Origin: Klebsiella phage KP13-26
Reading direction: 5' to 3' (one strand)
Sequence record: OP617743.1
DNA: 64,000 nt
Shown: positions 29,205-61,736 of the stretch, piece by piece
Layout of the letters: every line of letters begins with the position of its first letter
How positions within the stretch are numbered: position 1 is the stretch's first letter
The notes under the pieces: generated by a model
What the model was told of the DNA's origin: nothing
Databases searched by the model: none
What the model saw: only the letters and a program-made list of their open reading frames with translations
Program-made: the position numbers and the translations under genes

Positions 29205-29238
29205 AATAAAAGAAAAGGGGCTTTCGCCCCTTTGATTA
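29205..29238 (-). terminator. Bidirectional hairpin terminator at the strand switch
   Basis: GGGGC-TTTC-GCCCC stem flanked by T-runs on both strands. Confidence 0.6.
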
Positions 29239-30051
29239 TCCATTTAGATGATCTTCGACCATCTTAATGAAATGTGCATTGCTGAAGGTCTCAGCAGCTC
29301 CTGCATAGTAAACAACGACTCCCCTTTCTTCATAGAGGTTTTGTTCAAGATAATTCAAGCCGGGGTTAACAACGATCATCTTGGTTCCCATGTTTAGCGC
29401 AGGAAACAGTTCCCAGTTAAAGTTGATTACTTGGTTAGAGCAGCCAACTACAATTACCATATCTTGCCCTGTTAGGGTATCGAACAACGCATACATGTCG
29501 TTGTAGAGAGGTGCAGCCTCACCGAAGAACACAACATTAGGTTTAACCCAGTGGAATGCGTCGATATCCACATGAGCGTAGCCAACGTCCACCAGTGTTT
29601 CTTGAGAACTAGGCTCTAAACGATAACGGATCTCAGGTAAATAGCCGTGAACATGGAGTACAGATTCACGAGCCACACCAGCACGTTCCAACAGATCATC
29701 AACGTTAGTCGTGATGTTGTAGACACGCTCAGGAGCCATTGCAAACCATTTAGCAATTTGCAGGTGAGCTGCGTTAGGCTCTACAGTTGCTAGTTCTACA
29801 CGACGCTTGTTGTAGAAATTGTTTGTCTTCTCGTACAAATCCATCCCGTCATCATCAATACCACCTACAACAGGAACATCAGGGGATGTACGGCGGCGAT
29901 AGCCAGCTTGGAATGCACCAATATCACACACTTCAGCAAGATCATACTCGTCCCATAGTGCTTTCCCACTATCGGTATCGGTACGAAATGTACGCACACC
30001 GCTATCGGCGCTAAGTCCAGCACCGGAAACCACAATTAACCTTCTTGGCAT
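29236..30051 (-). CDS. SIR2 (sirtuin)-family NAD-dependent enzyme, no Zn ribbon
   Basis: Motifs GAGLSADSGVRTFR, TTNVDDLLERAG, VHG and KPNVVFFGE. Internal ATG 30051 preceded by GGAGGG. Confidence 0.7.
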   Translation of the reverse strand: MPRRLIVVSGAGLSADSGVRTFRTDTDSGKALWDEYDLAEVCDIGAFQAGYRRRTSPDVPVVGGIDDDGMDLYEKTNNFYNKRRVELATVEPNAAHLQIAKWFAMAPERVYNITTNVDDLLERAGVARESVLHVHGYLPEIRYRLEPSSQETLVDVGYAHVDIDAFHWVKPNVVFFGEAAPLYNDMYALFDTLTGQDMVIVVGCSNQVINFNWELFPALNMGTKMIVVNPGLNYLEQNLYEERGVVVYYAGAAETFSNAHFIKMVEDHLNG

Positions 30052-30167
30052 TTTTATCCCTCCACTATTTAATACACATTGTGTTTGATAATTTATCATA
30101 TCTTGATAATTCATATTTCACCTATACAAATAAAGCCCCAGGAAGGGGCTTTTATTAATTTTGAACA

Positions 30168-36613: not shown

Positions 36614-36868
36614 TCAGCAGGTTACAGTAAATGGATTACCTGGGGTATAAGGTATTTGTGGATTCTTCCAGATATCCTCGATTTGCTGTTTCCAAATTTC
36701 CCTTAGCTTTGTCACATCTGGATCAATGCTTTCATTAGGAACATCTGTTTCCACCTTAATAATTTCTTCTGACACCAAAATCTCTTTGGCTAGCTCAAGG
36801 TTGTCTGTCTCGATAGTGGTTTCTTTAGTCACTTCACCGACAGTTTCTTTGATTGTTATTTTGTACAT
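36614..36868 (-). CDS. hypothetical protein (84 aa)
   Basis: AGAGGAAG RBS; TAATG overlap with the upstream gene. Confidence 0.55.
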   Translation of the reverse strand: MYKITIKETVGEVTKETTIETDNLELAKEILVSEEIIKVETDVPNESIDPDVTKLREIWKQQIEDIWKNPQIPYTPGNPFTVTC

Positions 36869-37605
36869 TAGTCTTCCTCTAAAGTTGAATAAAACTTAAC
36901 CGTTCCTTGCTCATCAAACCAACTAAATGTCAGATTATTGTTGAAACAAGACCCGGTATCCATATATATACGATTAGCATTCATTAATGGCTTTGGTACA
37001 TAAGAGTGTCCATGAAATACATAGTCTACGCCTAATACTTTAGGCAAAGAAATCCCCTCCTGAGCACAGGAAATCATATCTCTATCCCACATTAAAGACT
37101 CTGCAAAAATATCTTCCTTTTCCTTGGATAATCCCAAATTAGGTATCTCTGTTACTGGTAAATATTCATAAGCAGAAGGATAACCTCCATGTATAAATGC
37201 TAACTTTTTACCTCTATGTTCTACTACTAGAACAACGGGGAGATTTTCTACCATTGTTGCCAATAAACTAACACCATCTTCCCCAAGCTCACTCCAAACA
37301 GTATGACCACCATTCTGATACCAACATTCATAATAATCTCTACTGCCTTCTAACATGCCTCTAATTAGCATATCTTCATGATTACCACGGATAGCAAAAC
37401 GGTTAGACTTACGTGTGAATTCAATTACACATCGCAGATTTTGTTTACCCCTGTCAGTAAGATCTCCGAGAGAAATAACATAATCTGTATCTCTAATTCC
37501 TAGAACTCTTTCTCCTTTTTTATAGAGATCGTAACATCCATGTAAATCCCCTATGATAAATAAATCTTTATCATCCTCCAATTTAATAAATTCATAAAGT
37601 TTCAC
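36868..37605 (-). CDS. Ser/Thr protein phosphatase (PPP/lambda-phosphatase type)
   Basis: GDLHG, GDLTDRG and RGNHE motifs; GTG start after GAGGAG. Confidence 0.8.
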   Translation of the reverse strand: MKLYEFIKLEDDKDLFIIGDLHGCYDLYKKGERVLGIRDTDYVISLGDLTDRGKQNLRCVIEFTRKSNRFAIRGNHEDMLIRGMLEGSRDYYECWYQNGGHTVWSELGEDGVSLLATMVENLPVVLVVEHRGKKLAFIHGGYPSAYEYLPVTEIPNLGLSKEKEDIFAESLMWDRDMISCAQEGISLPKVLGVDYVFHGHSYVPKPLMNANRIYMDTGSCFNNNLTFSWFDEQGTVKFYSTLEED

Positions 37606-44806: not shown

Positions 44807-44817
44807 TGTTACCCCTC

Positions 44818-45347: not shown

Positions 45348-45356
45348 GTTTTCTCC

Positions 45357-46442: not shown

Positions 46443-46774
46443 TATTTTAAATCCTCCACGATATTACACGATGTTTTAATTGCCTCAATGTGTTTTTGTT
46501 CCATGTTTTCCATTTGATAAAGTGATTCCAATGCTTCCCATACACTTTTTGTTAGCAGGATTGTACCAGTATTATTCCTTTTCCCAAAGTATCTAGACAT
46601 AGCCCATGCTGTGGCCTCTGGATCATCTGAAGCCCATATTTCAACGTTATCAAACTGCATACCTGCAATACACTTACAACACCAACTAGACGTAAAATCT
46701 TTACTATCAACTAATATATAGTTTCCATTTCGTCTTAAAGGTGTTACGCCAGGGAGTACGATTAACGTATGCAT
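46442..46774 (-). CDS. hypothetical protein between nrdA and nrdB (111 aa)
   Basis: Start at internal ATG after AAGGAGG; the 46837 start lies inside the nrdA terminator and is rejected. Confidence 0.45.
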   Translation of the reverse strand: MHTLIVLPGVTPLRRNGNYILVDSKDFTSSWCCKCIAGMQFDNVEIWASDDPEATAWAMSRYFGKRNNTGTILLTKSVWEALESLYQMENMEQKHIEAIKTSCNIVEDLK

Positions 46775-46785
46775 ATTCCTCCTTA

Positions 46786-46810
46786 GAAAAATAAAGGGGC
46801 TTTCGCCCCT
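46786..46810 (-). terminator. Rho-independent terminator after nrdA
   Basis: GGGGC-GAAA-GCCCC stem followed by TTTATTTTTCT on the minus strand. Confidence 0.55.
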
Positions 46811-46815
46811 TGATA

Positions 46816-49065: not shown

Positions 49066-49075
49066 TTCTACTCCA

Positions 49076-49324
49076 TTAATTATGCATATTTAGAACATCT
49101 ACATCATACCCTGTTTTCATTTCGTTATATAAGCCATTTGCATATAAGAATCCTTCAAAATGAGTAATATCTTGAAAACCTTTTTCTTTAGCTTTACGAT
49201 CTGCTTCTTGTCTTTTAGGGGATAATCGTTTAGATGTGTCTTTAATTACTGTGACATTACAGCCAATACTTTCATCAAAGTAAACTTCAATATCACAACC
49301 TTCATATTTATTACTTTCGGTCAT
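49076..49324 (-). CDS. hypothetical protein (82 aa)
   Basis: ATG 49324 after GAGAGG. Confidence 0.5.
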   Translation of the reverse strand: MTESNKYEGCDIEVYFDESIGCNVTVIKDTSKRLSPKRQEADRKAKEKGFQDITHFEGFLYANGLYNEMKTGYDVDVLNMHN

Positions 49325-49336
49325 TTGGCCTCTCAA

Positions 49337-49750
49337 TTAGAAATCAGAGCCATCATCATTACGTGACGGATCATGTTCATTTCCAAAGTCTTCCATTTTA
49401 ATATGAGAAACACCCCAACCTTCAAATTCTTCTTCTCCAAAATGTAAAATGTCATTGTTTTGATATACACGTTTAAATAGACAATTTGCATCTACAGGGA
49501 AAGTAAATAAAGTGGTTTTAGCATAAACAACACGACGATTATTATTACTACGAATATTCATATCGCGCTCGACAGTGTAATGTCCATTTTCAGGCATACC
49601 TAACATAACGAGAGCAGCTCGTAACACATTAGAATATTCTGAATTTGGGATTGTGCCATTATTTTCCTGTTCTTTTTTCTGCCAGATAGGTGTAGCTTTG
49701 ATGGTAGACATGCTTACGGTCGCCCAAGTGGTTGTATTAATTAGTGACAT
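49337..49750 (-). CDS. hypothetical protein (137 aa)
   Basis: AAGGAGA RBS. Confidence 0.6.
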   Translation of the reverse strand: MSLINTTTWATVSMSTIKATPIWQKKEQENNGTIPNSEYSNVLRAALVMLGMPENGHYTVERDMNIRSNNNRRVVYAKTTLFTFPVDANCLFKRVYQNNDILHFGEEEFEGWGVSHIKMEDFGNEHDPSRNDDGSDF

Positions 49751-49771
49751 AAATTCTCCTTATTCTCCAAA

Positions 49772-49789
49772 GGAGAGCTATAGCTCTCC
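49772..49789 (-). terminator. Perfect 18-bp palindrome GGAGAGCTATAGCTCTCC (hairpin terminator; a minus-strand TTGACT-N17-TAAGAT promoter overlaps it)
   Basis: Seen in sequence. Confidence 0.4.
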
Positions 49790-49826
49790 CAACGTTATGC
49801 TATCTTACATCAATCTCAAGTAAAAG

Positions 49827-50249
49827 TCAATAGGAGTTTGGTAAATATCTCCCTGTGGTTAAATCTCTGGGGTTGGTTGGTTTTAACCCCATATTTATAG
49901 CGTGGGTAGTGTTTTCTTTTTCAGTACACCACTCCAGATTTTCCACGGTGTTATTATGTTTGTTACCATCTTTATGGTTGACAAAAGGTTTGTTATCAGG
50001 GTTTGGAATAAACGCTTCTGCAACTAACCTGTGAACCCTGTACGTCTTAACAATACCATCCTTAGCTAGCCGTATGGTAAGGTAGCCTGTGCCATGTTCT
50101 GAACACTTTCTTTCACATTCTGGTACAAACTGTTGAACATCACCGTAAGGAGTTTTCCTTGTAACCCATCTCTCTAAACTATAAACCTTACCATTTTCAT
50201 CAACTTCGTAGACGCCCTCATACCCTTTAACAGATTTACGTTTTACCAT
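49827..50249 (-). CDS. HNH homing endonuclease (NUMOD4 + HNH_3)
   Basis: GYEGVYEV and HRLVAEAF...[10 protein letters not shown] motifs. Confidence 0.75.
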
Positions 50250-51211
50250 TTAGTGTGGTTCGGTAGTAGTTGTCTATATTGCACCCATCCTTTGAAATTA
50301 GCACTCCAGAAGTTACCATGCTTGTCTACATGAGTATAACCTTCATATCTATTAAGGGTGGCAAATACATCTTCACCTGTTGAAGAATCAACTACTAGCA
50401 TGGGAGTGGCAATATGTTCGAAAGGAGAAGCATGTACCTTACGACCAGTTAGTAAACGTCCATAGATATCCAAAGCTTTATCTTTAGTAGAGTTTAGACG
50501 ACGATAACTCACCTGCGCACAACAGGATGATGAAATAGCTTTAGCTTCTTGCTCATCTAGGATAACTTTCTCGCCATTTTCATCTTCTACGTAATAGCCG
50601 CAGAATACCCAGACGTCATCCCCTTCTGTACCAATATTTTCGTAGAAGTGTTCTACGTAAGGTGTATGCCACTGCCCTGGATGAAGCAGTTCTGGAGTTG
50701 AAGATTCCACTTCTTTATGCATAGCTTTAGCCAGAGCTTCAATAGTAGGATCAGCTTCCTCGTCATCTCGTAGCCACCAAAAGTTTTCATATTCTGTTGC
50801 AGTGAGCACTGTTTTCATTCTCTGGAACGGCTCTAGGAGACGATTAGCAATCTGCTTATGATAACCAGCTTCTGCTAGTTCTTCTGCAAAACGTGCTGCA
50901 CTAAGAGCAGCCAATTTCCACCATTCACGACCAGTGTATCCTGCACCCACAATACCATCGTGTTCTACGCCCTTATCTTGCATACCTGGTTGATTAGCCC
51001 CAAACCGATAAGGCATTGCAGGTTCATTTCTAACCATTTCAATTAGTGTTTTTACTGGAATTGCGCGGCTAGAAGCAGCATTTCTACTGAATAAGCGATG
51101 TGTCATTAACTCGCTATGGATGATTCGAGGGTATTCCAACTCGAAGGTGATGATTTCATTTCCACGCCCATTATGTGAATGAGCAATTACTTTTGCGCTA
51201 ATATCTGGCAT
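50243..51211 (-). CDS. thyX: Flavin-dependent thymidylate synthase
   Basis: ThyX-type motif …[16 protein letters not shown] (H-R then Ser 7 residues later); AAGGAGA RBS. Longer than typical ThyX (322 aa). Confidence 0.6.
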
Positions 51212-51220
51212 TGTTTCTCC

Positions 51221-51820
51221 TTATTTATGATAAATGTCCACAACATTAAAGATATCCTTCCAAGGATCTTCAATTGAAGTTATCAATACATTTGGTAGTG
51301 CTTTTAATTCTTCTAAAAATGGGTCTTCGTAAATAGTATTAAAGTATACCTTTACAACATGATCAGGGAATAGAACAAGATTCTCTGCCCGATCATCAAT
51401 TGTTATGTCACAAGGTAGTAAGTATTTCTCCTTTGTTGCGAAGAAGCCATTACCTGTTCCTCTCCCAAAATCAAATTCAGGAAGGTTACGCTTTATATAA
51501 CGATATTTGGAACTAAAGTGTCCACCCTTTGTATGGCTTGCAATGAGAAGTGAATCCCCCGCTTTACCAAAGTAGTTAAGTGTTTCGACACTTCCTGGTA
51601 CTGTACCCATTGTGTCGTATAGATGCTGATTATCCCAGAAGGAATGTGGGTCTATCCCAAATCTCTTTTCGAAATCAGGAAAGTATGCGGATAGGTTGTA
51701 AAGTGCATCTTTGCCAGAAGTTGGCAATACCACGTTATCACCACTCACAGCATTCAACCAAGCAAGCCAGGGAACATCAGCCGGAGCTATTACTAAATCA
51801 CAATCACAAACGATTCTCAT
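51221..51820 (-). CDS. HAD-superfamily 5'(3')-deoxyribonucleotidase-like protein
   Basis: N-terminal DxDxV (CDCDLV) motif directly after the Met; GAGGAG RBS. Confidence 0.4.
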   Translation of the reverse strand: MRIVCDCDLVIAPADVPWLAWLNAVSGDNVVLPTSGKDALYNLSAYFPDFEKRFGIDPHSFWDNQHLYDTMGTVPGSVETLNYFGKAGDSLLIASHTKGGHFSSKYRYIKRNLPEFDFGRGTGNGFFATKEKYLLPCDITIDDRAENLVLFPDHVVKVYFNTIYEDPFLEELKALPNVLITSIEDPWKDIFNVVDIYHK

Positions 51821-51862
51821 GTTTCTCCTCAAAGCCCCGTCTGTGGGGCTTATATTACTCTC

Positions 51863-52435
51863 TTAAGACTTAGATGCAAGCAAAATTTCAACTATCTGTT
51901 TTCTTCGCTTAATTATTGTACTGGCGGGAATAACCCCACGTTTTGTAAGCCAAGCTTTATCTTTTTTAGCTGAACACAAAGCAATTGCTTCTTTCTCTAT
52001 TCTAGCTTCTTCAAAAGAAATTCCATGTTTATCTGCATAAGCATGGATGGCATTACATTGTTTACACAGAATACGCAAGTCTTCCTCCTTAACATATAGA
52101 AGACGTAGGACAAATTCTGGCACATCTTCATAACATGTTAGGGCTTTTGCAGGATAAATATGGTCTACCTGAAAATCTGCCATTTTACCTGTATGTCCAC
52201 AGATATCGCAAGTGCAATTCCATATTTGCTTAGGCTTACCTGTTTTCTTATCTAACATGACATTTCCGTCTTTGTCAAGTCTATCTACTTTGAATCTTGC
52301 AGCATTAAGTTTTTTTATTTTGTTAGGGTGTACCATCCAAGCTCTACGTAAACACCCTCTTATATACGTATAAAATTCTGCTTGTGTTTTCCAGGGAGTT
52401 CCTTCTCCCCACATTATTTTTGGTTCTTTATTCAC
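51863..52435 (-). CDS. HNH endonuclease domain protein
   Basis: CDICGHTG...DHIYP HNH motif. Confidence 0.5.
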   Translation of the reverse strand: MNKEPKIMWGEGTPWKTQAEFYTYIRGCLRRAWMVHPNKIKKLNAARFKVDRLDKDGNVMLDKKTGKPKQIWNCTCDICGHTGKMADFQVDHIYPAKALTCYEDVPEFVLRLLYVKEEDLRILCKQCNAIHAYADKHGISFEEARIEKEAIALCSAKKDKAWLTKRGVIPASTIIKRRKQIVEILLASKS

Positions 52436-52616
52436 TACTACTTACCTTCTCTGCTGAATAATCACCCGGTGGAATGTTATATTTGAAAAATAGCATTCTA
52501 TCTAAACCTGATTTACACATATGCTCAGGGATAACAATAGTATGAAGAAGTTTGCTTTTTCTTTTATTATATATGTGATAAACATCTCCTTCCCTATATT
52601 GTTTATTCTCTGCCAT
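52428..52616 (-). CDS. hypothetical protein (62 aa)
   Basis: ORF. Confidence 0.45.
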   Translation of the reverse strand: MAENKQYREGDVYHIYNKRKSKLLHTIVIPEHMCKSGLDRMLFFKYNIPPGDYSAEKVSSSE

Positions 52617-53001
52617 CAAGTTTTCTCTTTAAAGATTCTACTTCCGCTACTGCTGCAAAGTAGTCCTGATGAATCATAGCTTTTAATGCAGCTTGAATAA
52701 AAGGATCTTCAGAATACATGTCAATAAGGATTTCTGCTTGTTCCTTCTTCTCTTGACTATTGAACAATGGGTAGTTGCTTTTGAGATAATTTGGTGCAGA
52801 AGCACAGATATCCCGTTCAATATTAATACAATGAATGGCCTTATTTAAATTGACTAATCTATCGCCTTTATCTCTGATGATGTATTTAGCTAGCTTAGTA
52901 AAACAAGGTGTTCCCCCAATAAGATATGCTAATTCTAGGGGTTGCATTTTAAGACGTTTGTAATGATCGCCATCTATTTGAATGTTTAATGCATCAGACA
53001 T
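52603..53001 (-). CDS. hypothetical protein (133 aa)
   Basis: Internal ATG after AGGAGA, preceded by a terminator. Confidence 0.5.
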   Translation of the reverse strand: MSDALNIQIDGDHYKRLKMQPLELAYLIGGTPCFTKLAKYIIRDKGDRLVNLNKAIHCINIERDICASAPNYLKSNYPLFNSQEKKEQAEILIDMYSEDPFIQAALKAMIHQDYFAAVAEVESLKRKLDGRE

Positions 53002-53010
53002 ATAATCTCC

Positions 53011-53036
53011 TAAATAAGAAAGGGGCCGAAGCCCCT
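53011..53036 (-). terminator. Rho-independent terminator
   Basis: GGGGC-TTCG-GCCCC stem followed by TTTCTTATTTA on the minus strand. Confidence 0.55.
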
Positions 53037-53041
53037 GTGTG

Positions 53042-54010
53042 TTAGATACCAATAGTTGTATTGGCACGTTTTTCTTTATTACGTAGGTTAATACGCCCAC
53101 GAGACAAGCTGTTGCAAGAGGAGCAGCGCAACACTTGGAATGTACTTACCGTGGTATGATAAAACTTACCAGGTACAATTTCTAAATGATCCTTCCCACA
53201 ACGAGGACAACGAACATTCTCGTCTTCGTAATAAGCTGACAGATTAGGATGTTGAGGAATCCACGCCAAGATTTTAATGTACAAATCACGTAATGAAACT
53301 ACATCCCCGTCATTATATGTTTGCATACGTTCGAAAGCACTTTTATCACCTTCGCAACAAGCTTTCCACAATGGGAATCCTTCATTATCTAGCTTTTCGC
53401 TTTCTGTTTCAAAGTATGCACCCATTTCTTTTAACGAGTTGGACGGTAGCGCAAACTGTTTCTTGGCTGCTTTCAATGTGTCTACAACAACATACGTAGA
53501 TGGTGGTTTCATACCATGATAAGCAAATCTTTGATTAATGTAGGCTCTATCAAACTTATACCCATTGTGTGCGACAACCACATCAGCATCATCTAGAATC
53601 TGCCATAGGTCTTGACACAATTCCCAATCATCTGTATGATCGATATCGAACAACGGGTATGAAGTTAAGTTCTTACCTTCTACTTCTCCTGTATAAAGAT
53701 CAGAAATAGAATAAGACAACAGATAACCACGTTTAATAACTTGATCTGGTGAAATAAAAGCTTTGAAACGGCGGAAACTATAAACAATTTCCGGGGCTGT
53801 CTCTACGTCAATGATTTTGATTACAGGCTGTTTAATTCCATCTGCAATATCCCTGACTTCACTAAGACTCTCGCCACGTGCAAGAAAATCATTTACTGTG
53901 CTCTTTCTACTGGCACTTCCTAGAACTTTAGCTGCAATGTGTCTTGAAGAATAACCCGCAGCTTTCATCGATGCAATTTCGATTTTCTGTTCATTTGTTA
54001 ACTTACTCAA
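53042..54010 (-). CDS. DnaQ-like DEDDy 3'-5' exonuclease with N-terminal HTH and C-terminal zinc ribbon
   Basis: Exo I IIDVETAP, Exo II HNGYKFDRAY, Exo III YNDGD, CPRCG...CSSC. TTG start after AGAGGAGGAAG. Confidence 0.6.
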   Translation of the reverse strand: MSKLTNEQKIEIASMKAAGYSSRHIAAKVLGSASRKSTVNDFLARGESLSEVRDIADGIKQPVIKIIDVETAPEIVYSFRRFKAFISPDQVIKRGYLLSYSISDLYTGEVEGKNLTSYPLFDIDHTDDWELCQDLWQILDDADVVVAHNGYKFDRAYINQRFAYHGMKPPSTYVVVDTLKAAKKQFALPSNSLKEMGAYFETESEKLDNEGFPLWKACCEGDKSAFERMQTYNDGDVVSLRDLYIKILAWIPQHPNLSAYYEDENVRCPRCGKDHLEIVPGKFYHTTVSTFQVLRCSSCNSLSRGRINLRNKEKRANTTIGI

Positions 54011-55122
54011 ACTTCCTCCTCTTCTGAGATATAGCTCTGAAGCATACTCTCAAATGTTGTTTCATCTTTATCCCAACGTTTCATATAAACCAACTGGAAT
54101 ATTGTTTCTAGCCATTCATCAGTAGTCAGATATACATCTACCCCATCGAAAGATGTAAAAGTAACTCCTGTAGGGAACCATTCATAGTACTGGTCTTTTA
54201 CGGTTTGGAATAATTCCGCTTGGGTTTTACACTGAGATATTAATTTATAACATGTCATATCGCCAAATTTAATATCAAAATCTTGGTATGGGCGGATACT
54301 ATCTGTTTTATCTCCCATAAGCATCTGGTATGCTAACCAATAACTACCCCAGCCCTTAACCTCTTTCTTTTTACTTTTTTCTACTACCCAAATATCTCCG
54401 ATAGAGTCATCTATCAGAATTATCTGAGGTGTTTTAAACACACCATCTTCTTTATAGAAGTTGAATAGTAAACTAGGAGTGGATAAGCTGTCCTTATCTA
54501 TTGAGCACACTACGTATGAAAATTTCCCTGTTTTAAGGTAATCTTGGTATCCCGTATACCCATATTTTTCAAGTTCATCGTCTGCTTCAATATCTGTGAC
54601 TACATCCCCGTTATGTTGTTCCACAAGGTAGTTTTTAGTCTCAGATAATTGTAAGGGTTTTATTTCAGATCTTTCAGATTTGTATTCTGTTGGCATTTGG
54701 AATAAATGCCGGAATGTTTTACCTACACCAATAACGCCACGGTATTTTGTTACTTTGAGATGGTCTAAAATACCACCGATTTTTGTTTTTGCTGCTTGAA
54801 AAGTGAATGCAATGTTATCAGGAGCAACTTGAACATCTTCAATGTCAAAATCTTCTTTTGAGAAAGTTTTTTTGCCTGCCTTCTCTCTTGAGCTATTTAA
54901 AGCTCCTAACCAACCCCCAATGGTTGTTTTACTACTTCCCCAAAAATCGGTACGTTTATCAAACTCTTTTGTGTTCCCGGAAGATTTGTGTATAACTTTG
55001 ATTGAACGTTTCTCTAAAGCAGATGCGGCTTGGAAAGCAATCTGATCATAGTCAATTACAAGTGTTGTATTTTCATCAATATACTTATGTAAATCTTCCG
55101 GCTCTATTAATATGTAGCCGAT
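54007..55122 (-). CDS. FEN-family 5'-3' exonuclease / RNase H-like; N-terminal 145 codons lack a canonical start
   Basis: The track ORF 54007-54696 carries DIEADDEL and GDKTDSIRPY (H3TH) blocks. Its upstream in-frame extension 54697-55131 carries the FEN N-motif TLVIDYDQIAFQAAS but has no ATG, GTG or TTG. A possible ATC start at 55122 follows AGGAGGG. Confidence 0.45.
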   Translation of the reverse strand: MGYILIEPEDLHKYIDENTTLVIDYDQIAFQAASALEKRSIKVIHKSSGNTKEFDKRTDFWGSSKTTIGGWLGALNSSREKAGKKTFSKEDFDIEDVQVAPDNIAFTFQAAKTKIGGILDHLKVTKYRGVIGVGKTFRHLFQMPTEYKSERSEIKPLQLSETKNYLVEQHNGDVVTDIEADDELEKYGYTGYQDYLKTGKFSYVVCSIDKDSLSTPSLLFNFYKEDGVFKTPQIILIDDSIGDIWVVEKSKKKEVKGWGSYWLAYQMLMGDKTDSIRPYQDFDIKFGDMTCYKLISQCKTQAELFQTVKDQYYEWFPTGVTFTSFDGVDVYLTTDEWLETIFQLVYMKRWDKDETTFESMLQSYISEEEEV

Positions 55123-55131
55123 ATTACCCTC

Positions 55132-55341
55132 CTATTCATCATCCTCGTCGGTTGAAAATGTCTTTGTATATGGACATTGACGATTTACAGATACTTCGTA
55201 GGTGAAGTCATAATTTGAGTTAGAATAGAAACAAACTTTTGTATCACCACTCACAGTTTCTCCTGAATTTGGAATGGTTATTTGCCCTGCTTTTGCAGAA
55301 GCACTTGTGATTAATAATAAAACAAGTAGAATGTTCTTCAT
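55132..55341 (-). CDS. small secreted protein (69 aa) with signal peptide
   Basis: MKNILLVLLLITSASA/KA. Its TAG stop is in-frame with the FEN extension. Confidence 0.5.
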   Translation of the reverse strand: MKNILLVLLLITSASAKAGQITIPNSGETVSGDTKVCFYSNSNYDFTYEVSVNRQCPYTKTFSTDEDDE

Positions 55342-55415
55342 AATATTATCCTCATAATGCCCACCTAACTAAGTAGGAGGGCATGTTAACACAAACGAAG
55401 TCCGTAAGTCAAGCG

Positions 55416-56300
55416 TTATTTTTTAAAAGTGGCCCCAGCCAGATCTTCGAGCATACCACGTACCTCTTTGAAGCACAGCAGGACTGCTGCTTCGATACTA
55501 CCTTCCTCGTCGTTGAAGTATTTCGGGAACTTGATTCCGCTCAGACGGAAATCTTTATCCACAATGAAGTTGACAACACCATCATACTCCAGACCAATAG
55601 CCTGAACAGATTTGCCATCTTCTTTCAGTTCTAGAGCTTTAGAGTCATACAGAGATTCTTTGCTCCAGACAACGATACCTTCATCATCTTCTAGTTTGAT
55701 GTAGTTGCCTAGGGTTAGACGCTGAAATTCATGAGTCTCTAAAATCTCACCAAAACCTTTTACAATAAGGTCTTCATGGACACCAAAACCCATAACTGCA
55801 AAACTACCCAGAACATCACGCAGGAATGCAGTAATTTCCTCGCTGACTTTCTTACTACCATTAATAACGTACAGAATGTCCATCTCAGTATCAAGCACTA
55901 CGTAGTTGTAGAAATCATCTGCTTCTGTCTCCGGGAGGAGAGAGAAAATAACATCAGCTTCAATAGCTTTCTTACTTTCTTTGTCGAGGAAGAACTCAAT
56001 ACCGGGATTATCGATAGCATGGGCTTCTTCCATCTGTTTAATCTTAGCAGCAACCAGGCGTTTAACTTTTTTCTTGTTCACTTTCTTGACAGACTGACCA
56101 ACGTTGATCAGTTGCAAACCGTTAAACTCTTTCACATAAGATTGGTCATCCTCAAACTTAACAAGGCCAATTGTATGAGCTTGCTGACCTTCTGCAATCA
56201 CAAAGTCCAGAGGACGATCAGTGATGTTATTTAGTTCGGCAATAGACAGACCTTCGGCAGCAGCCAGCGGAAGGGCAGATTTGAATTTTTTAGCAAACAT
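55416..56300 (-). CDS. RdgC-like recombination-associated protein
   Basis: About 300 aa; blocks SLLP...VLDTEMDILYVINGSKK...LRDVLGS align with E. coli RdgC; AAGGAGA RBS. Confidence 0.4.
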   Translation of the reverse strand: MFAKKFKSALPLAAAEGLSIAELNNITDRPLDFVIAEGQQAHTIGLVKFEDDQSYVKEFNGLQLINVGQSVKKVNKKKVKRLVAAKIKQMEEAHAIDNPGIEFFLDKESKKAIEADVIFSLLPETEADDFYNYVVLDTEMDILYVINGSKKVSEEITAFLRDVLGSFAVMGFGVHEDLIVKGFGEILETHEFQRLTLGNYIKLEDDEGIVVWSKESLYDSKALELKEDGKSVQAIGLEYDGVVNFIVDKDFRLSGIKFPKYFNDEEGSIEAAVLLCFKEVRGMLEDLAGATFKK

Positions 56301-56634: not shown

Positions 56635-57357
56635 TTAGCCTACAATACTTTTAATATCAGGTTTAGAAAAGGTAGAAGGTTTCATGATCTTACCTTTATC
56701 ATCAAAAAACACATAGACTTTTTGTTTCTCATTGTAGGTGGCATGTACACCAATGTACGCACCTTCTGAACGATCCTTATTACGCTCCTCGATTGCAGCA
56801 CATTCTTGTGCAATAGCAAACTCAATATCCTTAGTCTCCCACACTGCCAGAAGCTGTTTGCGAGTTGGGTATTTCGAGTCATTACTACGTAATACCTCTT
56901 TAAGAACTTTTTTGTAGTTGTACTTAGAACGGACTAGAGTGTCTCTTGCCATGCGTAGCATAGCTATAGTAAGAGGGATAATTTGTGCATCGGTTGACAT
57001 TTCTTTCTCATATAAAAGAAATTCATCATACACTGCTTCAGGGAAAACATCACCAACACCTGTGCTTAAAATCTTTTCGAGATTTTCTTCACTAGTAAAC
57101 ATAAAAGTTAGGTAACTAGCTACTACAAAAACATCTGCGGCAGCATCTAAAAGTTCAACATGATCGTTAATCTTCGCAGCATCTTGAAATTCTTTCAACT
57201 CTTCTCTGACATATCCTAACTGTGCAATAAACATTTCATTGGTAAACTCAGGAGTTTCTCCTCCTCGTGCTTTAGCATTCCATGCAATAACATGTTTAGC
57301 AGCGTCAATGAAAAATTGATTATCGGCTTTAATAGGTTTATAAAAATCTGTAATCAC
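56635..57357 (-). CDS. MazG-like all-alpha NTP pyrophosphohydrolase
   Basis: REELKEFQDA...ELLDAAADVFVVASYL EExxE/D pattern. Confidence 0.35.
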   Translation of the reverse strand: MITDFYKPIKADNQFFIDAAKHVIAWNAKARGGETPEFTNEMFIAQLGYVREELKEFQDAAKINDHVELLDAAADVFVVASYLTFMFTSEENLEKILSTGVGDVFPEAVYDEFLLYEKEMSTDAQIIPLTIAMLRMARDTLVRSKYNYKKVLKEVLRSNDSKYPTRKQLLAVWETKDIEFAIAQECAAIEERNKDRSEGAYIGVHATYNEKQKVYVFFDDKGKIMKPSTFSKPDIKSIVG

Positions 57358-57555: not shown

Positions 57556-58674
57556 TTATTCGGCAGGTTCCCATGTCCCGTCGATCATCTCTCTTAGACG
57601 AACACCAACTGGTTTCGTAGGAATCCCGGCGTCAGATAATTCTTCATATTCAATTTCTACAAATTGATCGATAAGTTGGGAAGCGTTATCGGCTTTGCGG
57701 TAGTTAATGGTCGGATGTGAATCTTTCCTCATCAGGAATTCCACAATCTTATCATCTTTTGTAACCCCTGTCAACACCCCATCACCATTTTTATCAACAG
57801 TCATACCCGTTACTTTTACTTCCATGTTGCCACGAGGTTTACGTTTGATAACGTCATAGGAACGTTTACCGAACTCATACATACCGTCTTCGTTGCGATA
57901 CACGATACCTTCGGCTTTATCTTCCAAAGCTTTTTCATAAAAAGCGTCTAACTGCTCTTGGTTTTCAATGTACTCAGAATGCACAACATGAATAAGGTCT
58001 TCTAAGCCAGCTTGTACAACCATCTCTGCTAAGTCTTTCAAGAACTCTACACGCTTCTTGAATGGTAGATCTGGTACAGGAATATCATATACGTAGTAGC
58101 CTAACTGCTCAGTGATACCAGCCTTATACTTCTTCCATGCTCCATTGATGACTTGCAGACTCAGAACACCCAAGCCAGCAAACACTTCACCATCTAAAGG
58201 ATACCCAAAATCTTCCTGAATGAACTCAGGAATTTTAGTCCAGTGTTCAGGAAGTGTATACACTTCACCAGCTTTTGATAGGCATTCACCATCATCGTTA
58301 AGCATAGAACGTAAACCATTCAACTTGTATTGCGCATACCCTGGGAAACGCACTTTATGAGAGAAGTCCTTATAATCCTGACACTTCATCGGTGTAAAGG
58401 GTTCGTGATCTTGTGCTTCCTCAATGGTGTGGTAATATCCTCGTTTAAGCTGCTTCGTCCATTTTGCCAAAGCTTCTAATTCCGCTTGCTCTTCTGGTGT
58501 AGTTTCATTAGATCGACCAACATTTTTAGCTTCGGCTTCATAGGACTTCGTAGTAATCTTTCCACCAAGACGACCATGACCAACTGTAACAGTTGCACCA
58601 TCCGTATAGACAGACCATTCTTTAATATTACCTTTGGTGTCTTTACCATACAATGTAGGATTTAATTGCAGCAT
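57556..58674 (-). CDS. ATP-dependent DNA ligase
   Basis: Motif I K-L-N-G-L-R; 372 aa, similar to T7-type ligases; AAGGAGAA RBS. Confidence 0.6.
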   Translation of the reverse strand: MLQLNPTLYGKDTKGNIKEWSVYTDGATVTVGHGRLGGKITTKSYEAEAKNVGRSNETTPEEQAELEALAKWTKQLKRGYYHTIEEAQDHEPFTPMKCQDYKDFSHKVRFPGYAQYKLNGLRSMLNDDGECLSKAGEVYTLPEHWTKIPEFIQEDFGYPLDGEVFAGLGVLSLQVINGAWKKYKAGITEQLGYYVYDIPVPDLPFKKRVEFLKDLAEMVVQAGLEDLIHVVHSEYIENQEQLDAFYEKALEDKAEGIVYRNEDGMYEFGKRSYDVIKRKPRGNMEVKVTGMTVDKNGDGVLTGVTKDDKIVEFLMRKDSHPTINYRKADNASQLIDQFVEIEYEELSDAGIPTKPVGVRLREMIDGTWEPAE

Positions 58675-59501: not shown

Positions 59502-59906
59502 CTACTGTAATTTTAAGGAATTACGCAAACGTTTTTCTTGAGTATCACGAATATTCTGTGGAACATCGTGGATAGAGTTATTCCCATGACGGTTTTCTAC
59601 AACTAAGCTTACCACCTGATATTCGTACTCTTCTGCTAAATCCAGATAAGGAGTAAGTTCTTTCTCCGTGGTGGATGTATTAGATACGATAATCTTGAGG
59701 AAACCCTGTTCCATCGCTTCCTTTACCTTATCTTGGCACCATTTATGTGCTGCATGAACATTCTCAGGTTTCCAATCGTAAACACCATCCTCAGTGTAAT
59801 GAAATTTGTCTGCTTCACAGACAGGCCACAAATCTTCTGCCAACATATCTGCCACTGTGGACTTACCAGCACCAGACACACCACGTAAAATAATAAGTCT
59901 TTTCAT
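59502..59906 (-). CDS. Polynucleotide 5'-kinase (T4 Pnk N-terminal-domain-like, stand-alone)
   Basis: P-loop GVSGAGKST; IIVSNTS corresponds to the T4 Pnk SDTN block. Confidence 0.6.
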   Translation of the reverse strand: MKRLIILRGVSGAGKSTVADMLAEDLWPVCEADKFHYTEDGVYDWKPENVHAAHKWCQDKVKEAMEQGFLKIIVSNTSTTEKELTPYLDLAEEYEYQVVSLVVENRHGNNSIHDVPQNIRDTQEKRLRNSLKLQ

Positions 59907-60826
59907 TATTTCTCCCTCTCAAAGTACGTTTCGATTTTCTCTCTCCGAACTTGGGAATCTAAAGCTTTCCATTCTTCTTTTTCAAAAGCGAAACGTAGCC
60001 ACTCTAGCAGTGAATAGTATTCTTCGTCAATACGTTTCCTTGCTTCTTGTGGATTATCCCAAATCATATCCCATTTATTATCCCCTCCGCGCATCAGGAA
60101 TTTTTTCGCCAAGTAATGTGGAGATTTGATTTTCATAAGAAGTTCGCTGTTTTCTTCATCTGTTCCGATATTACGGATGACATAACCCTCATGCTGGACA
60201 TGCTGGACATTATAGACCACATCACCAAAAGGAACAACACCCCATGTAGGGCGCTTTGCGCCAATAACCTCAGCAATACGATCAAGCTTATGTTCTTCCA
60301 CCATAACACCGTTCAAAGCAAGGTCACGGACACCAATAAGATATGCCCCTTCTTCCTCATCTATAATGTGCGGATCACTTCTATCACAGATTTCAAAGAT
60401 AAATGTGAAATCCTCTGGAAACGCCACACGGTCAAACTTAAGTTCGTCAAGATGTTTCCGTGCAAGAGTGGAGAACTCGGAATCCAAGGTTCCTGTTGTT
60501 GACACAAGAAGTTTTTCACCACGTACCGCAGCAGTTGCCATAAATCCATTGACTTTACGAACGCACACAACCTGCTGATCAAGTGGTAAGTCTGTTCCAT
60601 TTTCAAAACGATTGAAAATCTTCGTGAAAGGCCAGATAATAACATTATCTTCTGCATCAACAACCATCCCACGGCATTCCAGCAAACGTTGGTCTGTATG
60701 CCATAGGTTATCCCAGAACACATTGTTCTTATATTTAAGAACAGACAGTCCCGCGTATGGGCCATCAATATAAGTCTTTTTCGTGACTAATTTTTTAGCT
60801 ACCAAGTCATCGACATTAAATTTCAT
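59906..60826 (-). CDS. RNA ligase, T4 Rnl1 (RnlA)-like
   Basis: LLECRGMVV and motif I VRKVNGF align with T4 Rnl1 LECRGIMF and TKEDGSL. Confidence 0.55.
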   Translation of the reverse strand: MKFNVDDLVAKKLVTKKTYIDGPYAGLSVLKYKNNVFWDNLWHTDQRLLECRGMVVDAEDNVIIWPFTKIFNRFENGTDLPLDQQVVCVRKVNGFMATAAVRGEKLLVSTTGTLDSEFSTLARKHLDELKFDRVAFPEDFTFIFEICDRSDPHIIDEEEGAYLIGVRDLALNGVMVEEHKLDRIAEVIGAKRPTWGVVPFGDVVYNVQHVQHEGYVIRNIGTDEENSELLMKIKSPHYLAKKFLMRGGDNKWDMIWDNPQEARKRIDEEYYSLLEWLRFAFEKEEWKALDSQVRREKIETYFEREK

Positions 60827-60828
60827 AA

Positions 60829-61377
60829 CTATTCCTCAATCTTTTTATGGTGATCGATTACCTTCACGTCGCGCGTATCCATAATCTCAATAACTTCATC
60901 GAAATGAATTATTTTACCAACAGCATCCCAACCAACATCCATCATCTTTCCGAATAAATGGTCTGGAAAACTTCCATGTGAGTGCCCATGTAAATGAATT
61001 GAACCACGGCCTTGTTTATTCCATGACGCAATAGGATAGTGACAAAGAACAAAAAATTTCTTTTTATACTTCACCTCTTCATAATACTTCACTTCACCGT
61101 ACTTTTCAAGAACTTCACGGTGTTTTGAGTAATCATGATTCCCAACGATAAAGGTAATCTCACCGTTTAAACGGGAAGCAATGAAATCTGTTTCTTCTGG
61201 CGTACCAAAACAGAAATCTCCAAGATGATACATTTTTGTGCCAGGTGTTTTTGCTTTTTCGTTCCAAGCCGCAATAAGAGCCTCTGTCATCTCTTCCATA
61301 GTTTCCCACGGTCTAAAATTAGGAGCAAACTCCTTGATACGTTTATGCATGAAATGCAGGTCACTTGTCAAATACAT
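60829..61377 (-). CDS. Calcineurin-like metallophosphoesterase
   Basis: DLHFMH, GDFCFG, GNHD and HGHSH motifs. Confidence 0.7.
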   Translation of the reverse strand: MYLTSDLHFMHKRIKEFAPNFRPWETMEEMTEALIAAWNEKAKTPGTKMYHLGDFCFGTPEETDFIASRLNGEITFIVGNHDYSKHREVLEKYGEVKYYEEVKYKKKFFVLCHYPIASWNKQGRGSIHLHGHSHGSFPDHLFGKMMDVGWDAVGKIIHFDEVIEIMDTRDVKVIDHHKKIEE

Positions 61378-61736
61378 TAATATAGTCCCTCGCTAAATAG
61401 GTCACGGTGATGACCGTTTCTTTCATAGTTAATCTGATTGGCTGCTTCTGCGATGATATACGCATCTTCGCGACTCCACCAATTATAATACTGATCAATG
61501 AAGCCTTGATCATCAGGAAGACACCAACCTTTCTCCAACAAACCAGCATCCATTAGAACTTTTATCTGTTGGGATAATACCGGATTTGTGTGTCTGACAC
61601 ATGGTACAACCAATTCTTCCCCAGTTGTCAGGATGTATTTGTTAGCCGCACATACAATAACACGTTGAGCGTAAGTCTCTTCGTCATGAATCCAATAGAG
61701 ATGTTGGTAGCAAATATTATCTTTCATCATGATCAT
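61377..61736 (-). CDS. hypothetical protein (119 aa)
   Basis: Start uncertain. Confidence 0.45.
   Translation of the reverse strand: MIMMKDNICYQHLYWIHDEETYAQRVIVCAANKYILTTGEELVVPCVRHTNPVLSQQIKVLMDAGLLEKGWCLPDDQGFIDQYYNWWSREDAYIIAEAANQINYERNGHHRDLFSEGLY

Follow-up and report, generated by a model that had tools for sequence, protein, structure and literature searches.

Klebsiella phage KP13-26 carries three neighbouring genes, encoding a Pnk-type kinase, an Rnl1-type ligase and a metallophosphoesterase, that probably constitute a phage RNA end-healing and end-sealing set split over three genes. The cassette lies within the 64-kb stretch of the phage genome analysed here (OP617743.1), hereafter the window. 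We infer that the RNAs it mends are most likely tRNAs cut by host defence nucleases. A role in RNA repair against RNA-cleaving host nucleases, as originally proposed, is still the best reading in view of the kinase and ligase families and the linkage of the genes. The cassette is genuine, is common among large phages and has already been predicted in the literature, since RNA repair was proposed independently, on computational grounds, for the V5/Mydo neighbourhood (Iyer, Burroughs, Anantharaman and Aravind, 2022; PMC9503650).

Organization of the cassette

Three open reading frames (ORFs) fill the span 59502-61377 exactly (Table 1), where they had been placed from the sequence and with the kinase and ligase motifs then read in them. 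All three proteins pass the Pfam gathering scores, and PHROG matches of 1e-56 to 1e-61 put their assignments far beyond chance. As the minus strand encodes the whole trio, transcription proceeds from phosphoesterase to ligase to kinase, the reverse of the order given in the original prediction. Translational coupling by TAATG, claimed for the whole trio, holds for one of its two junctions: ligase and kinase genes share a TAATG overlap, whereas phosphoesterase and ligase are joined by TAG-TT-ATG, a 2-nt spacer with GAGGA just upstream. A second TAATG couples an upstream 119-aa ORF to the phosphoesterase. This ORF has no Pfam, NCBIfam or PDB match, and its membership of the cassette is doubtful because it lies beside the cassette in only 3 of the 80 viral loci described below.

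Table 1. The cassette genes and other genes of the window discussed in the text
Feature	Position	Strand	Evidence
Kinase, 134 aa	59502..59906	minus	ORF, Pfam, PHROG
Ligase, 306 aa	59906..60826	minus	ORF, Pfam, PHROG
Phosphoesterase, 182 aa	60829..61377	minus	ORF, Pfam, PHROG
119-aa ORF	61377..61736	minus	phrog_839 1.2e-43
cREC domain protein, 118 aa	62217..62573	minus	Pfam cREC_REC 1e-13
MazG-like nucleotide pyrophosphohydrolase	56635..57357	minus	Pfam PRA-PH 1.4e-5, phrog_671 1e-27
SIR2-family protein	29236..30114	minus	Pfam SIR2 2.2e-21

Between 56 and 64 kb, 16 promoter-like sites were found against 19.5 expected, together with 9 terminator-like sites (4.9 +/- 2.3 expected), all of the latter within coding regions; with these results no operon boundaries can be drawn for the region. 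The 64-kb window contains no tRNA genes.

The ligase

The 306-aa protein belongs to the Rnl1 family and is predicted to be an ATP-dependent RNA ligase, the sealing enzyme of the set. It matches Pfam RNA_lig_T4_1 (4.4e-10) and phrog_562 (3.8e-61), and aligns with T4 RnlA by hhalign (probability 97.2, E 4e-11). A PDB search with the family profile returned T4 Rnl1 (2c5u, 2.3e-11), then Pab1020 (Rnl3) at 0.19, and no others. The AF2 model (pLDDT 90.3) is matched in Foldseek first by Trl1 ligase domains (best 6n0t, 1.7e-11), just ahead of T4 Rnl1, with Rnl3 nearly as good (2.6e-10). Profile, hhalign and Foldseek agree in upholding the Rnl1-type ligase with LECRG and KVNG motifs that had been recognized from the sequence. 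A DNA ligase or a capping enzyme, the other identities raised with the original prediction, is excluded by the family profile search and by Foldseek. An Rnl3 entry titled 'ATP dependent DNA ligase', matched by the single sequence in the PDB (E 0.02), was misleading and was overturned by the family profile.

Nucleotidyltransferase motifs I, III, IV and V are all present: K91-V-N-G94, F144-E145, E213-G214-Y-V and K232-I-K234 do not vary among 22 homologues and align with T4 K99/G102, E159, E227/G228 and K240/K242 (hhalign). Upstream of motif I, L-E-C-R52-G and K69-I-F71-N have their counterparts in T4 LECR54G and K75-F-F77-N; no variation is seen at R52, K69 or N72, and F71 is kept in at least 90% of sequences. 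Of eleven T4 Rnl1 positions that we take to be functionally important, R54, K75, F77 and K119 among them, nine have invariant counterparts (R52, K69, K91, G94, E145, E213, G214, K232 and K234). The motif Ia lysine is absent, T4 K119 being aligned with T111 within a nearly invariant S-T-T-G. The hhalign match stops at T4 residue 249 and leaves T4 residues 250-374 unaligned by sequence. In the model, the C-terminal region of the phage ligase is helical and spans about 70 aa (236-304), fewer than the 125 residues left unaligned in T4 Rnl1, and it contains conserved basic residues (K241, K242, R246, K251 and R294). The C-terminal helical domain of T4 Rnl1 confers tRNA specificity. Both the replacement of Lys119 by Thr111 and the unaligned C-terminus are points against a repair role.

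The kinase

The 134-aa protein is a minimal stand-alone Pnk-type P-loop kinase, with a predicted function in 5'-OH end healing; it consists of the kinase domain alone, with no fused 3'-phosphatase domain. It matches Pfam AAA_33 (1.7e-10), phrog_2071 (3e-57) and phrog_505 (polynucleotide kinase, 3e-9), and hhalign aligns it with the T4 PseT kinase domain (probability 96.9, E 2e-10). The three strongest named PDB families for its profile are all polynucleotide kinases, namely Pnkp1 (4xrp, 5.4e-6), CthPnkp kinase (2e-4) and T4 Pnk (2e-3). The AF2 model (pLDDT 89.4) likewise gives T4 Pnk (1ly1, 2ia5; TM 0.75-0.78) and CthPnk (4jt2; TM 0.79) at the top of Foldseek, and Mucorales Trl1-type kinase modules are also among the matches of profile and model. 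The resemblance to the T4 Pnk kinase domain noticed at the outset is thereby borne out by hhalign, PDB profile and Foldseek together.

Its P-loop reads G9-V-S-G-A-G-K15-S16-T (GVSGAGKST) and it also carries SNTS. D33 and T77, invariant in 24 homologues, align with T4 D35 and T86, which are the general base and a contact to the acceptor, respectively. The T4 acceptor and lid arginines are not matched: Arg38 is replaced by His36 and Arg126 aligns with Asn110, and both differences count against the repair reading. R106, nearly invariant, aligns with T4 R122; the lid assignment is uncertain because a 7-residue alignment gap lies just before the lid segment. Gluconokinases, the sole and weak single-sequence PDB matches of the kinase (E 0.06-0.1), were overturned by the family profile.

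These weak matches, the plain 'ATPase' label of the kinase PHROG and the term 'nucleotide kinase' used by Iyer et al. (2022; PMC9503650) would suit a cassette that has nothing to do with repair. The P-loop protein would then be a kinase of nucleotides or small molecules and the ligase homologue a non-catalytic protein acting, for example, in tail-fibre attachment, the second annotated function of T4 gp63; phrog_562 is indeed labelled 'RNA ligase and tail fiber protein attachment catalyst'. We consider such a cassette highly improbable. All examined catalytic residues of the ligase are invariant in homologues down to 48% identity, and polynucleotide kinases rank first for the kinase by profile and by fold. 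Kinase and ligase have also been fused repeatedly and independently, and within the ligase clade there is fusion to a genuine Pnkp-type healing cassette (see below); unless the proteins act jointly on the ends of nucleic acids, such fusions would be hard to explain.

The phosphoesterase

The 182-aa protein matches Pfam Metallophos (6.7e-7) and phrog_547 (3.8e-56) and carries the motifs SDLHF, LGDF, GNHD, CHYP and GHSHG. In 27 homologues the five motifs of binuclear metallophosphoesterases (D6-x-H8, G53-D54, G79-N80-H81, H113 and G131-H132-x-H134) are invariant, including the metal-binding and catalytic residues D6, H8, D54, N80, H81, H113, H132 and H134. The sole PDB relative is 1xm7 (Aquifex aq_1665), found with the single sequence at 1.5e-8 and with the family profile at 1.1e-20 over residues 2-116. 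The protein also has the N-terminal DxHxxH of aq_1665, in which H11 is invariant. It can thus be classified, by sequence, as a complete binuclear metallophosphoesterase of the aq_1665 branch. As a candidate 2',3'-cyclic phosphate or 3'-phosphate end-healing enzyme it is plausible but unproven.

The calcineurin-type phosphatase of Pnkp/Hen1 systems had been invoked for this gene. The superfamily and the status of a separate gene stand; the branch does not. GDxxDRG is missing, the corresponding motif being H-L-G-D-F-C-F-G, and in the PDB the phosphoesterase profile matches neither the CthPnkp phosphatase (4j6o) nor lambda phosphatase (1g5b) even at E <= 10. With 1xm7 as the only match, the profile search rules out a lambda/Pnkp-type identity. 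A separate gene of the window (37605..36868) carries GDLTDRG. NCBIfam gave nothing above threshold; the similarity of the phosphoesterase to PdeM, a DNA-repair endonuclease, is weak and sub-threshold.

Linkage across viral loci and natural fusions

The context of the genes was surveyed in 80 viral metagenomic loci whose ligases are 36-79% identical to the phage ligase. The kinase accompanies the ligase in 75 of these loci, the phosphoesterase adjoins it in 63, and all three genes are present in 60. With M for phosphoesterase, L for ligase and K for kinase, the trio is arranged M-L-K in 39 loci, K-L-M in 18, L-M-K in 2 and divergently in 1. Median distances to the ligase ORF are 2 nt for the kinase ORF and 172 nt for the phosphoesterase ORF.

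Kinase and ligase are also found as one protein. Kinase-ligase fusions occur in 11 viral loci and in Cardiobacteriaceae chromosomes, where a gene for an aq_1665-type phosphoesterase follows directly. Ligase-kinase and phosphoesterase-ligase fusions exist as well, and Leptolyngbyaceae encode kinase-phosphoesterase-ligase proteins of about 710-790 aa, or 700-812 aa in the representative library, with CthPnkp-type healing domains (4j6o 2.5e-24, 4gp6 3.5e-11), one of them beside RtcB. Adjacency kept in several gene orders and natural fusions sustain the functional link between the three genes that was originally suggested; this conserved linkage, with the fusions, gives good support to an end-healing and sealing role for kinase and ligase.

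For the phosphoesterase the evidence is divided. The repair unit might comprise kinase and ligase only, and the aq_1665-type enzyme would then be a general phage phosphoesterase with no more than a tendency to lie close by. Its substrates might be nucleotide or cyclic-nucleotide signals, which it would break down, or DNA ends, which it would clean for a neighbouring DNA ligase, and 3'-end healing would in that case fall to cREC or another enzyme. The family is the more widespread of the two, with 1080 phage records against 638 sequenced phage genomes for the ligase, and it extends to Staphylococcus and Enterococcus phages, both outside the ten top-match genera of the ligase. In a converse survey (the best 80 viral loci retrieved with a 10-sequence subset of the 27-sequence phosphoesterase alignment), 49 loci had no Rnl1-type ligase within 6 kb. 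The phosphoesterase domains fused to ligases are of another type, the aq_1665 branch never being fused to a ligase there, and the viral kinase-ligase fusions have no phosphoesterase family close by, a search for a substitute among 70 neighbouring proteins having found none. The faint resemblance to PdeM and the presence of an ATP-dependent DNA ligase within 6 kb of the RNA ligase in 34 of the 80 ligase loci point the same way. Frequent lack of a nearby ligase, occurrence in Staphylococcus and Enterococcus phages, absence from ligase fusions and want of a characterised member in the aq_1665 branch weigh on the three-gene reading. Nevertheless, the phosphoesterase adjoins the RNA ligase in three gene orders and at close range, whereas the DNA ligase is 1-3 kb off and less constant, and in Cardiobacteriaceae an aq_1665-type gene directly follows the kinase-ligase fusion. 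In phosphoesterase loci without an Rnl1-type ligase, moreover, the immediate neighbours seen most often still belong to RNA repair, namely cREC (4), AAA_33 kinase (4), Rnl2-type ligase (2) and RlaP (1). A unit of kinase and ligase only is in our judgement unlikely, yet it is the most serious competitor of the three-gene set.

Neighbouring genes and an NAD-dependent pathway

The cREC (cyclic-phosphate-processing receiver) protein is a predicted cyclic phosphodiesterase (Iyer et al., 2022; PMC9503650) and would be an accessory member of the neighbourhood. In 13 of the 80 loci a homologue is located no more than 6 kb from the ligase; among the nine closest of these, six have the gene between ligase and kinase and a seventh has it directly downstream of the ligase. 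A MazG-like gene is found in the same 6-kb range in 12 loci. SIR2 homologues directly follow the kinase in 11 of the 80 loci, an arrangement of V5/Mydo-like relatives; in the window the SIR2 gene is 29 kb from the kinase. NAD-salvage genes flank the cassette in relatives. No Hen1 or other methyltransferase was found among the neighbouring ORFs scanned, a set that omitted several small ORFs at 58.7-63.9 kb.

Iyer et al. (2022; PMC9503650) proposed a pathway of the fungal/plant type that depends on NAD. In it, cREC would leave a 2'-phosphate, a Trl1-like ligase needing or tolerating that phosphate would seal, and the sirtuin would remove it in the manner of Tpt1/KptA; the metallophosphoesterase would act on residual phosphates or on ADP-ribose cyclic phosphate, the by-product. 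Opening of the cyclic phosphate to a 2'-phosphate could be due to cREC or to the metallophosphoesterase itself. The narrow lead of Trl1 ligase domains over T4 Rnl1 in Foldseek, the cREC gene in the neighbourhood, the SIR2 genes of the window and of the relatives, and the NAD-salvage genes are all in keeping with this published hypothesis. The ligase sequence profile, by contrast, finds T4 Rnl1 and no Trl1 entry, the SIR2 gene of the window is remote, and the functions of the cREC and sirtuin clades are themselves predictions (PMC9503650). Across the 80 loci, SIR2 and cREC accompany the ligase in 11 and 13 cases against 63 and 75 for phosphoesterase and kinase, which identifies them as lineage-specific additions. 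The NAD-dependent pathway appears improbable. The same low expectation attaches to the broader proposition that the cassette performs fungal/plant-type tRNA ligation in a phage or, in a milder form, that the orphan aq_1665 branch is an unrecognised, dedicated class of RNA 2',3'-end-healing enzymes. T4 Rnl1 needs no 2'-phosphate.

Proposed mechanism and significance

In the three-gene set that we favour, the Pnk-type kinase would phosphorylate the 5'-OH of the broken RNA, and the cyclic phosphate would be converted to a 3'-OH by a phosphoesterase activity, most likely that of the adjacent aq_1665-type enzyme, possibly with help from the nearby cREC protein. The Rnl1-type ligase would then be adenylylated at Lys91, pass AMP to the 5'-phosphate and seal the break. 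Literature searches retrieved neither biochemistry nor genetics on the three proteins, and no experimental work on aq_1665.

Should the prediction be right, a compact counter-defence against tRNA-cleaving immunity is carried by a sizeable, medically relevant group of phages (V5-like, phi92-like, Mydo-like, Pakpunavirus and many Vibrio phages among them), several of which are used in therapy. This would bear on host-range prediction and on escape from PrrC/RloC-type systems and others that target RNA. The aq_1665 branch of metallophosphoesterases would gain a first function, and the minimal 134-aa polynucleotide kinase and the short Rnl1 ligase might serve as reagents. The 'unusual domain composition' of the original prediction has to be given up: with the ligase in 638 phage genomes, the trio in 60 of 80 loci and the neighbourhood already described (PMC9503650), the composition is not unusual for phages.

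Comparison with known repair systems

Bacterial Pnkp/Hen1 systems (Clostridium thermocellum, Anabaena) resemble the cassette in combining a P-loop Pnk kinase, a calcineurin-superfamily phosphoesterase and an ATP-dependent ligase, and the CthPnkp kinase is recovered by the phage kinase profile and model. They differ in uniting these activities in one polypeptide, where the phage has three, and in their phosphatase, to which the phage enzyme, devoid of GDxxDRG, has no detectable sequence similarity. The Pnkp ligase domain has Pfam families of its own; the phage ligase is of Rnl1 type and does not match the Pnkp ligase-domain family in Pfam or PDB profile searches. The Pnkp1-Rnl-Hen1 system of Capnocytophaga gingivalis is likewise split, and the phage kinase profile matches no PDB sequence better than its Pnkp1. 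However, Pnkp1 (312 aa) adds a phosphatase domain, which is HAD-type, Hen1 is needed and the ligase is of a different family.

Trl1, the fungal and plant ligase-kinase-CPDase, provides the top structural matches of the phage ligase model, and its union of ligase and kinase has parallels in the phage ligase clade, where the two are fused in either order. Trl1 uses a 2H cyclic phosphodiesterase, whereas the phage cassette has no 2H domain. Trl1 also requires a 2'-phosphate, later removed by Tpt1. For aq_1665 of Aquifex aeolicus, a structural-genomics metallophosphoesterase to which PDB entry 1xm7 assigns no function, the match covers the N-terminal 116 residues of the phage enzyme.

A further counterpart is the V5/Mydo neighbourhood, KP13-26 being a relative (Stephanstirmvirinae, Justusliebigvirus). 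The published neighbourhood comprises a T4-like tRNA ligase, cREC, a small kinase, MazG, a calcineurin-like phosphoesterase and a sirtuin (PMC9503650), and the first five families are all encoded by the minus strand of the window between 56.6 and 62.6 kb. In KP13-26 the sirtuin is distant, and cREC lies upstream instead of separating ligase from kinase. The phosphoesterase, 'occasional' in the published account, is by far more regular in our 80 loci than cREC or sirtuin.

In the classic tRNA healing and sealing pathway of T4, Pnkp (pseT) and Rnl1 (rnlA) counter PrrC. Unlike the stand-alone phage kinase, the T4 kinase is fused to a HAD (DxDxT) phosphatase, and the proposed 3' healing enzyme of KP13-26 is a binuclear metallophosphoesterase from a separate gene. 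The T4 ligase is longer (374 aa) with a C-terminal region unalignable by sequence, and R38 and R126 of Pnk and K119 of Rnl1 are substituted in the KP13-26 proteins. In T4, pseT and rnlA are some 1.4 kb apart, with four genes (pseT.1, pseT.2, pseT.3 and alc) between them, whereas the KP13-26 genes abut. The ligases nevertheless belong to one family, and their motifs I, III, IV and V align, as do the ECRG and K-F-N elements; the kinases share fold, P-loop, general-base Asp and the Thr86 equivalent; and the same three chemical steps would be required. The cassette thus opens no new category, as its neighbourhood has already been predicted in print and its logic is that of T4 Pnkp and Rnl1.

Layout of the cassette

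Three genes on the minus strand of the Klebsiella phage KP13-26 window, encoding a metallophosphoesterase, an Rnl1-type ligase and a Pnk-type kinase (see the table), probably constitute an RNA healing-and-sealing set. Judged from sequence and modelled structure, this reading is the best explanation of the trio, with a strong case for the kinase and the ligase and a less strong one for the phosphoesterase. The ORF listing bears out the three genes of the original prediction, tightly packed on one strand within 59502-61377, and the motifs that it named (GVSGAGKST, SNTS, LECRG and KVNG) are all found in the encoded proteins. Strand, order and one junction required small corrections. Because all three ORFs lie on the minus strand, the transcriptional order is phosphoesterase, ligase, kinase, the opposite of the order first proposed. 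Coupling by TAATG overlaps, claimed for the whole trio, holds for the ligase stop and the kinase start, but the phosphoesterase/ligase junction reads TAG-TT-ATG, with GAGGA just upstream.

The phage genome measures ~145 kb, and a KP13-26 protein matches the ligase at 100% identity. The DNA of the window shares 90-92% identity with Klebsiella phages KP2025 and FKP3, and DNA of Escherichia phage muut matches the window at ~73% identity; FKP3 and muut are classified in the Stephanstirmvirinae, genus Justusliebigvirus. Records of these relatives annotate the same genes as 'phosphoesterase', 'RNA ligase' (in some 'RNA ligase/RNA repair') and 'ATPase'. Small ORFs are inserted in the cassettes of the closest relatives: in FKP3, one hypothetical ORF of 216 nt separates phosphoesterase and ligase and another of 492 nt lies upstream of the phosphoesterase. 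Insertions are thus tolerated in the cassette, and its genes are not always as tightly coupled as in the window.

Features of the window and of related loci (L001, Klebsiella phage FKP3; L088, Cardiobacteriaceae MAG; L107, Leptolyngbya sp. PCC 7375)
Feature	Position	Strand	Remarks
Phosphoesterase, 182 aa	61377..60829	minus	cassette ORF
Ligase, 306 aa	60826..59906	minus	cassette ORF
Kinase, 134 aa	59906..59502	minus	cassette ORF
cREC_REC-domain protein, 118 aa	62217-62573	minus	Pfam 1e-13; acidic motifs WLDD, FDNDLG
ORF of 119 aa (phrog_839)	61377-61736	minus	TAATG overlap with phosphoesterase start
ATP-dependent DNA ligase	57556-58674	minus	DNA_ligase_A_M 2e-14; K-L-N-G at expected motif I position
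Nucleotide/DNA metabolism block	40526-56300	minus	downstream of cassette
RdgC-like	55416-56300	minus	
RNase H-fold protein	53042-54010	minus	
NT5C-like HAD nucleotidase	51221-51832	minus	
ThyX	50243-51211	minus	
RNR small subunit	45357-46442	minus	
RmlD-like reductase	43398-44240	minus	
PhoH	41684-42439	minus	
Proteasome-fold protein	40526-41197	minus	
Resolvase-domain protein	38403-39065		
Second metallophosphoesterase, lambda-phosphatase/PPP branch	36868-37605	minus	GDLHGC, GDLTDRG, RGNHE; 23 kb from cassette
SIR2-family protein	29236-30114	minus	Pfam 2e-21
Small hypothetical ORF, FKP3	L001:5359-5574		between phosphoesterase and ligase
Small hypothetical ORF, FKP3	L001:6126-6617		upstream of phosphoesterase
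Kinase-ligase fusion (~495 aa), then phosphoesterase	L088:5392-7522	+	284-kb contig
Kinase-phosphatase-ligase fusion gene	L107:4780-6918	+	CthPnkp-type domains and Rnl1-type ligase

Ligase and kinase

The 306-aa protein is an Rnl1-family RNA ligase, as originally proposed. It matches Pfam RNA_lig_T4_1 above the gathering threshold (E 4.4e-10), a PDB search with the family HMM gives T4 Rnl1 at 2.3e-11 (followed, among ligase families, by Pab1020 of the Rnl3 type at 0.19), and hhalign of a 22-sequence family alignment against T4 RnlA gives a probability of 97.2 (E 4e-11) over T4 residues 48-249. Residues R54, K75, F77, K99, G102, K119, E159, E227, G228, K240 and K242 of T4 Rnl1 are essential; in the 22 sequences the counterparts of all except F77 and K119 are invariant, F71, the counterpart of F77, is kept in at least 90%, and the K119 position is a near-invariant Thr. 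The AlphaFold model (pLDDT 90.3) best matches Trl1 ligase domains and T4 Rnl1, with Rnl3 enzymes close behind and Rnl2, Rnl5 and DNA ligases far behind. Its ~70 last residues form a helical bundle, shorter than the unaligned C-terminal part of T4 Rnl1, which comprises 125 residues and is the tRNA-specificity domain of that enzyme. A DNA ligase or capping enzyme identity was ruled out.

The 134-aa protein is a minimal, divergent, stand-alone Pnk-type kinase, again in agreement with the earlier assignment. As a single sequence it matches AAA_33 (1.7e-10) and, weakly, only gluconokinases in the PDB; a 24-sequence profile ranks polynucleotide kinases first (Capnocytophaga Pnkp1 5.4e-6, Mucorales kinase entries 2e-5 to 8e-5, the CthPnkp kinase domain 2e-4, T4 Pnk 2e-3). 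hhalign against T4 PseT covers the whole kinase domain (probability 96.9), and the best superpositions of the model (pLDDT 89.4) are those with T4 Pnk and CthPnk (TM 0.75-0.79). K15, S16, D33 (T4 D35) and T77 (T4 T86) are kept in the 24-sequence profile, and R106 aligns with T4 R122; T4 R38 is replaced by His36, and R126 is aligned with Asn110.

Linkage and fusions

The 80 viral loci searched with family HMMs carry ligases that share 36-79% identity with that of the window. The order phosphoesterase-ligase-kinase occurs in 39 loci, kinase-ligase-phosphoesterase in 18, ligase-phosphoesterase-kinase in 2 and a divergent arrangement in 1; in 11 others, kinase and ligase are fused in one ORF of ~430 aa (AAA_33 and RNA_lig_T4_1) with no phosphoesterase nearby. 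Median distances to the ligase ORF are 2 nt for the kinase ORF and 172 nt for the phosphoesterase ORF. Adjacency persists although the order changes, which speaks for selection and not for common descent alone. The ligase is accompanied by a kinase in 75 loci (64 separate, 11 fused), a phosphoesterase in 63, cREC in 13 and a sirtuin in 11, counts that indicate a conserved core of kinase, ligase and phosphoesterase with other genes being lineage-specific.

Fusions firmly tie the ligase clade to end-healing modules. In a representative library of 1.8 billion proteins the clade comprises 475 clusters (E <= 1e-30); 35 of the best 150 reach at least 400 aa, and the ones examined among these 35 are mostly fusions, with ligase-kinase and phosphoesterase-ligase types represented. 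In Cardiobacteriaceae chromosomes a kinase-ligase fusion is followed, directly in the MAG locus, by a phosphoesterase related to Aquifex aeolicus aq_1665; the genes around this locus appear to be cellular, with a mechanosensitive channel and proteins of the EamA and VTT-domain types. On the chromosomes of Leptolyngbyaceae cyanobacteria, kinase-metallophosphoesterase-ligase fusions are encoded as single proteins, about 710-790 aa long (700-812 aa in the representative library). They have CthPnkp-type healing domains (4j6o 2.5e-24, 4gp6 3.5e-11) and a ligase domain 28-32% identical to the phage ligase, Rnl1-type rather than Pnkp-type. About 25 proteins resemble that of Leptolyngbya PCC 7375 (e.g. 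P0406). In this strain the fusion gene is followed by genes for a DUF29 protein and a Pol-beta nucleotidyltransferase, beyond which, 1.6 kb downstream, lies rtcB; Hen1 was not seen in the vicinity.

Phosphoesterase

Across 27 homologues, none of the five metallophosphoesterase motifs varies, so the phosphoesterase is expected to be an active binuclear enzyme. Its sole solved relative is aq_1665 (1xm7; 1.5e-8 with the single sequence, 1e-20 with the profile), a structure without assigned function.

The association with the ligase is asymmetric: among the 80 best viral loci of the phosphoesterase, a ligase lies within 6 kb in only 31 and a kinase in 24. The main rival explanation, that a more general phage phosphoesterase happens to lie near the cassette with no dedicated role in RNA repair, draws on this asymmetry, on the wider spread of the family (1080 isolated phage genomes versus 638 for the ligase, including phages of Staphylococcus and Enterococcus, both absent from the ten genera richest in ligase matches), and on the aq_1665 branch never being fused to a ligase in the bacterial loci and representative-library fusions examined. 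Against it, the commonest immediate neighbours of the phosphoesterase in loci without an Rnl1-type ligase are still repair genes, namely cREC (4), AAA_33 kinases (4), Rnl2-type ligases (2) and RlaP (1). Setting these neighbours against the asymmetry, we rate a role of the phosphoesterase in 3'-end healing as likely, though unproven.

Wider neighbourhood

In the window the cREC gene is found upstream of the phosphoesterase, 840 bp away, and its homologue sits between ligase and kinase in Mydo/V5-like relatives. In 11 of the 80 related loci the gene immediately after the kinase is a SIR2 homologue; in the window phage the SIR2 gene is displaced by 29 kb. The 119-aa ORF adjoins the cassette in only 3 of the 80 loci, and Pfam, NCBIfam and the PDB gave no match to it. 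Just downstream of the cassette are a MazG-like gene and the ATP-dependent DNA ligase. In 34 of the 80 viral loci a homologue of this DNA ligase is no more than 6 kb from the RNA ligase, and one also occurs in the kinase-ligase fusion loci. The second metallophosphoesterase has a homologue at this distance from the RNA ligase, up to 6 kb, in 4 of the 80.

The sign of the GC skew switches near 30 kb of the window, and among ORFs of at least 140 aa most of those before ~29 kb are plus-strand and nearly all beyond it are minus-strand; together these place a boundary of two oppositely transcribed gene blocks at about 29000-31000. ARAGORN found no tRNA genes in the 64-kb window, so any tRNA complement of the phage would be elsewhere in its genome.

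Comparison with known systems

The original prediction likened the phosphatase to that of bacterial Pnkp/Hen1 systems. Searches with the phosphoesterase found neither lambda phosphatase nor the CthPnkp phosphatase, even at E <= 10, and its motif is LGDFCFG, unlike the GDxxDRG of the Pnkp/Hen1 type; the likeness is therefore at superfamily level only. The bacterial Pnkp phosphatase belongs instead to the same branch as the second metallophosphoesterase of the window.

The composition had also been called unusual, a description that fails because the arrangement occurs widely and its prediction has already been published. A literature search found no experimental study of the cassette or neighbourhood proteins. 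Such a neighbourhood was described in phages V5 and Mydo, with a predicted function in RNA repair and a sirtuin acting like KptA (Iyer et al., 2022, section 3.7.3; PMC9503650). The cassette is of this computationally predicted kind, of which the window adds a further example, and its pathway may follow either the T4 route or a 2'-phosphate/NAD-dependent route.
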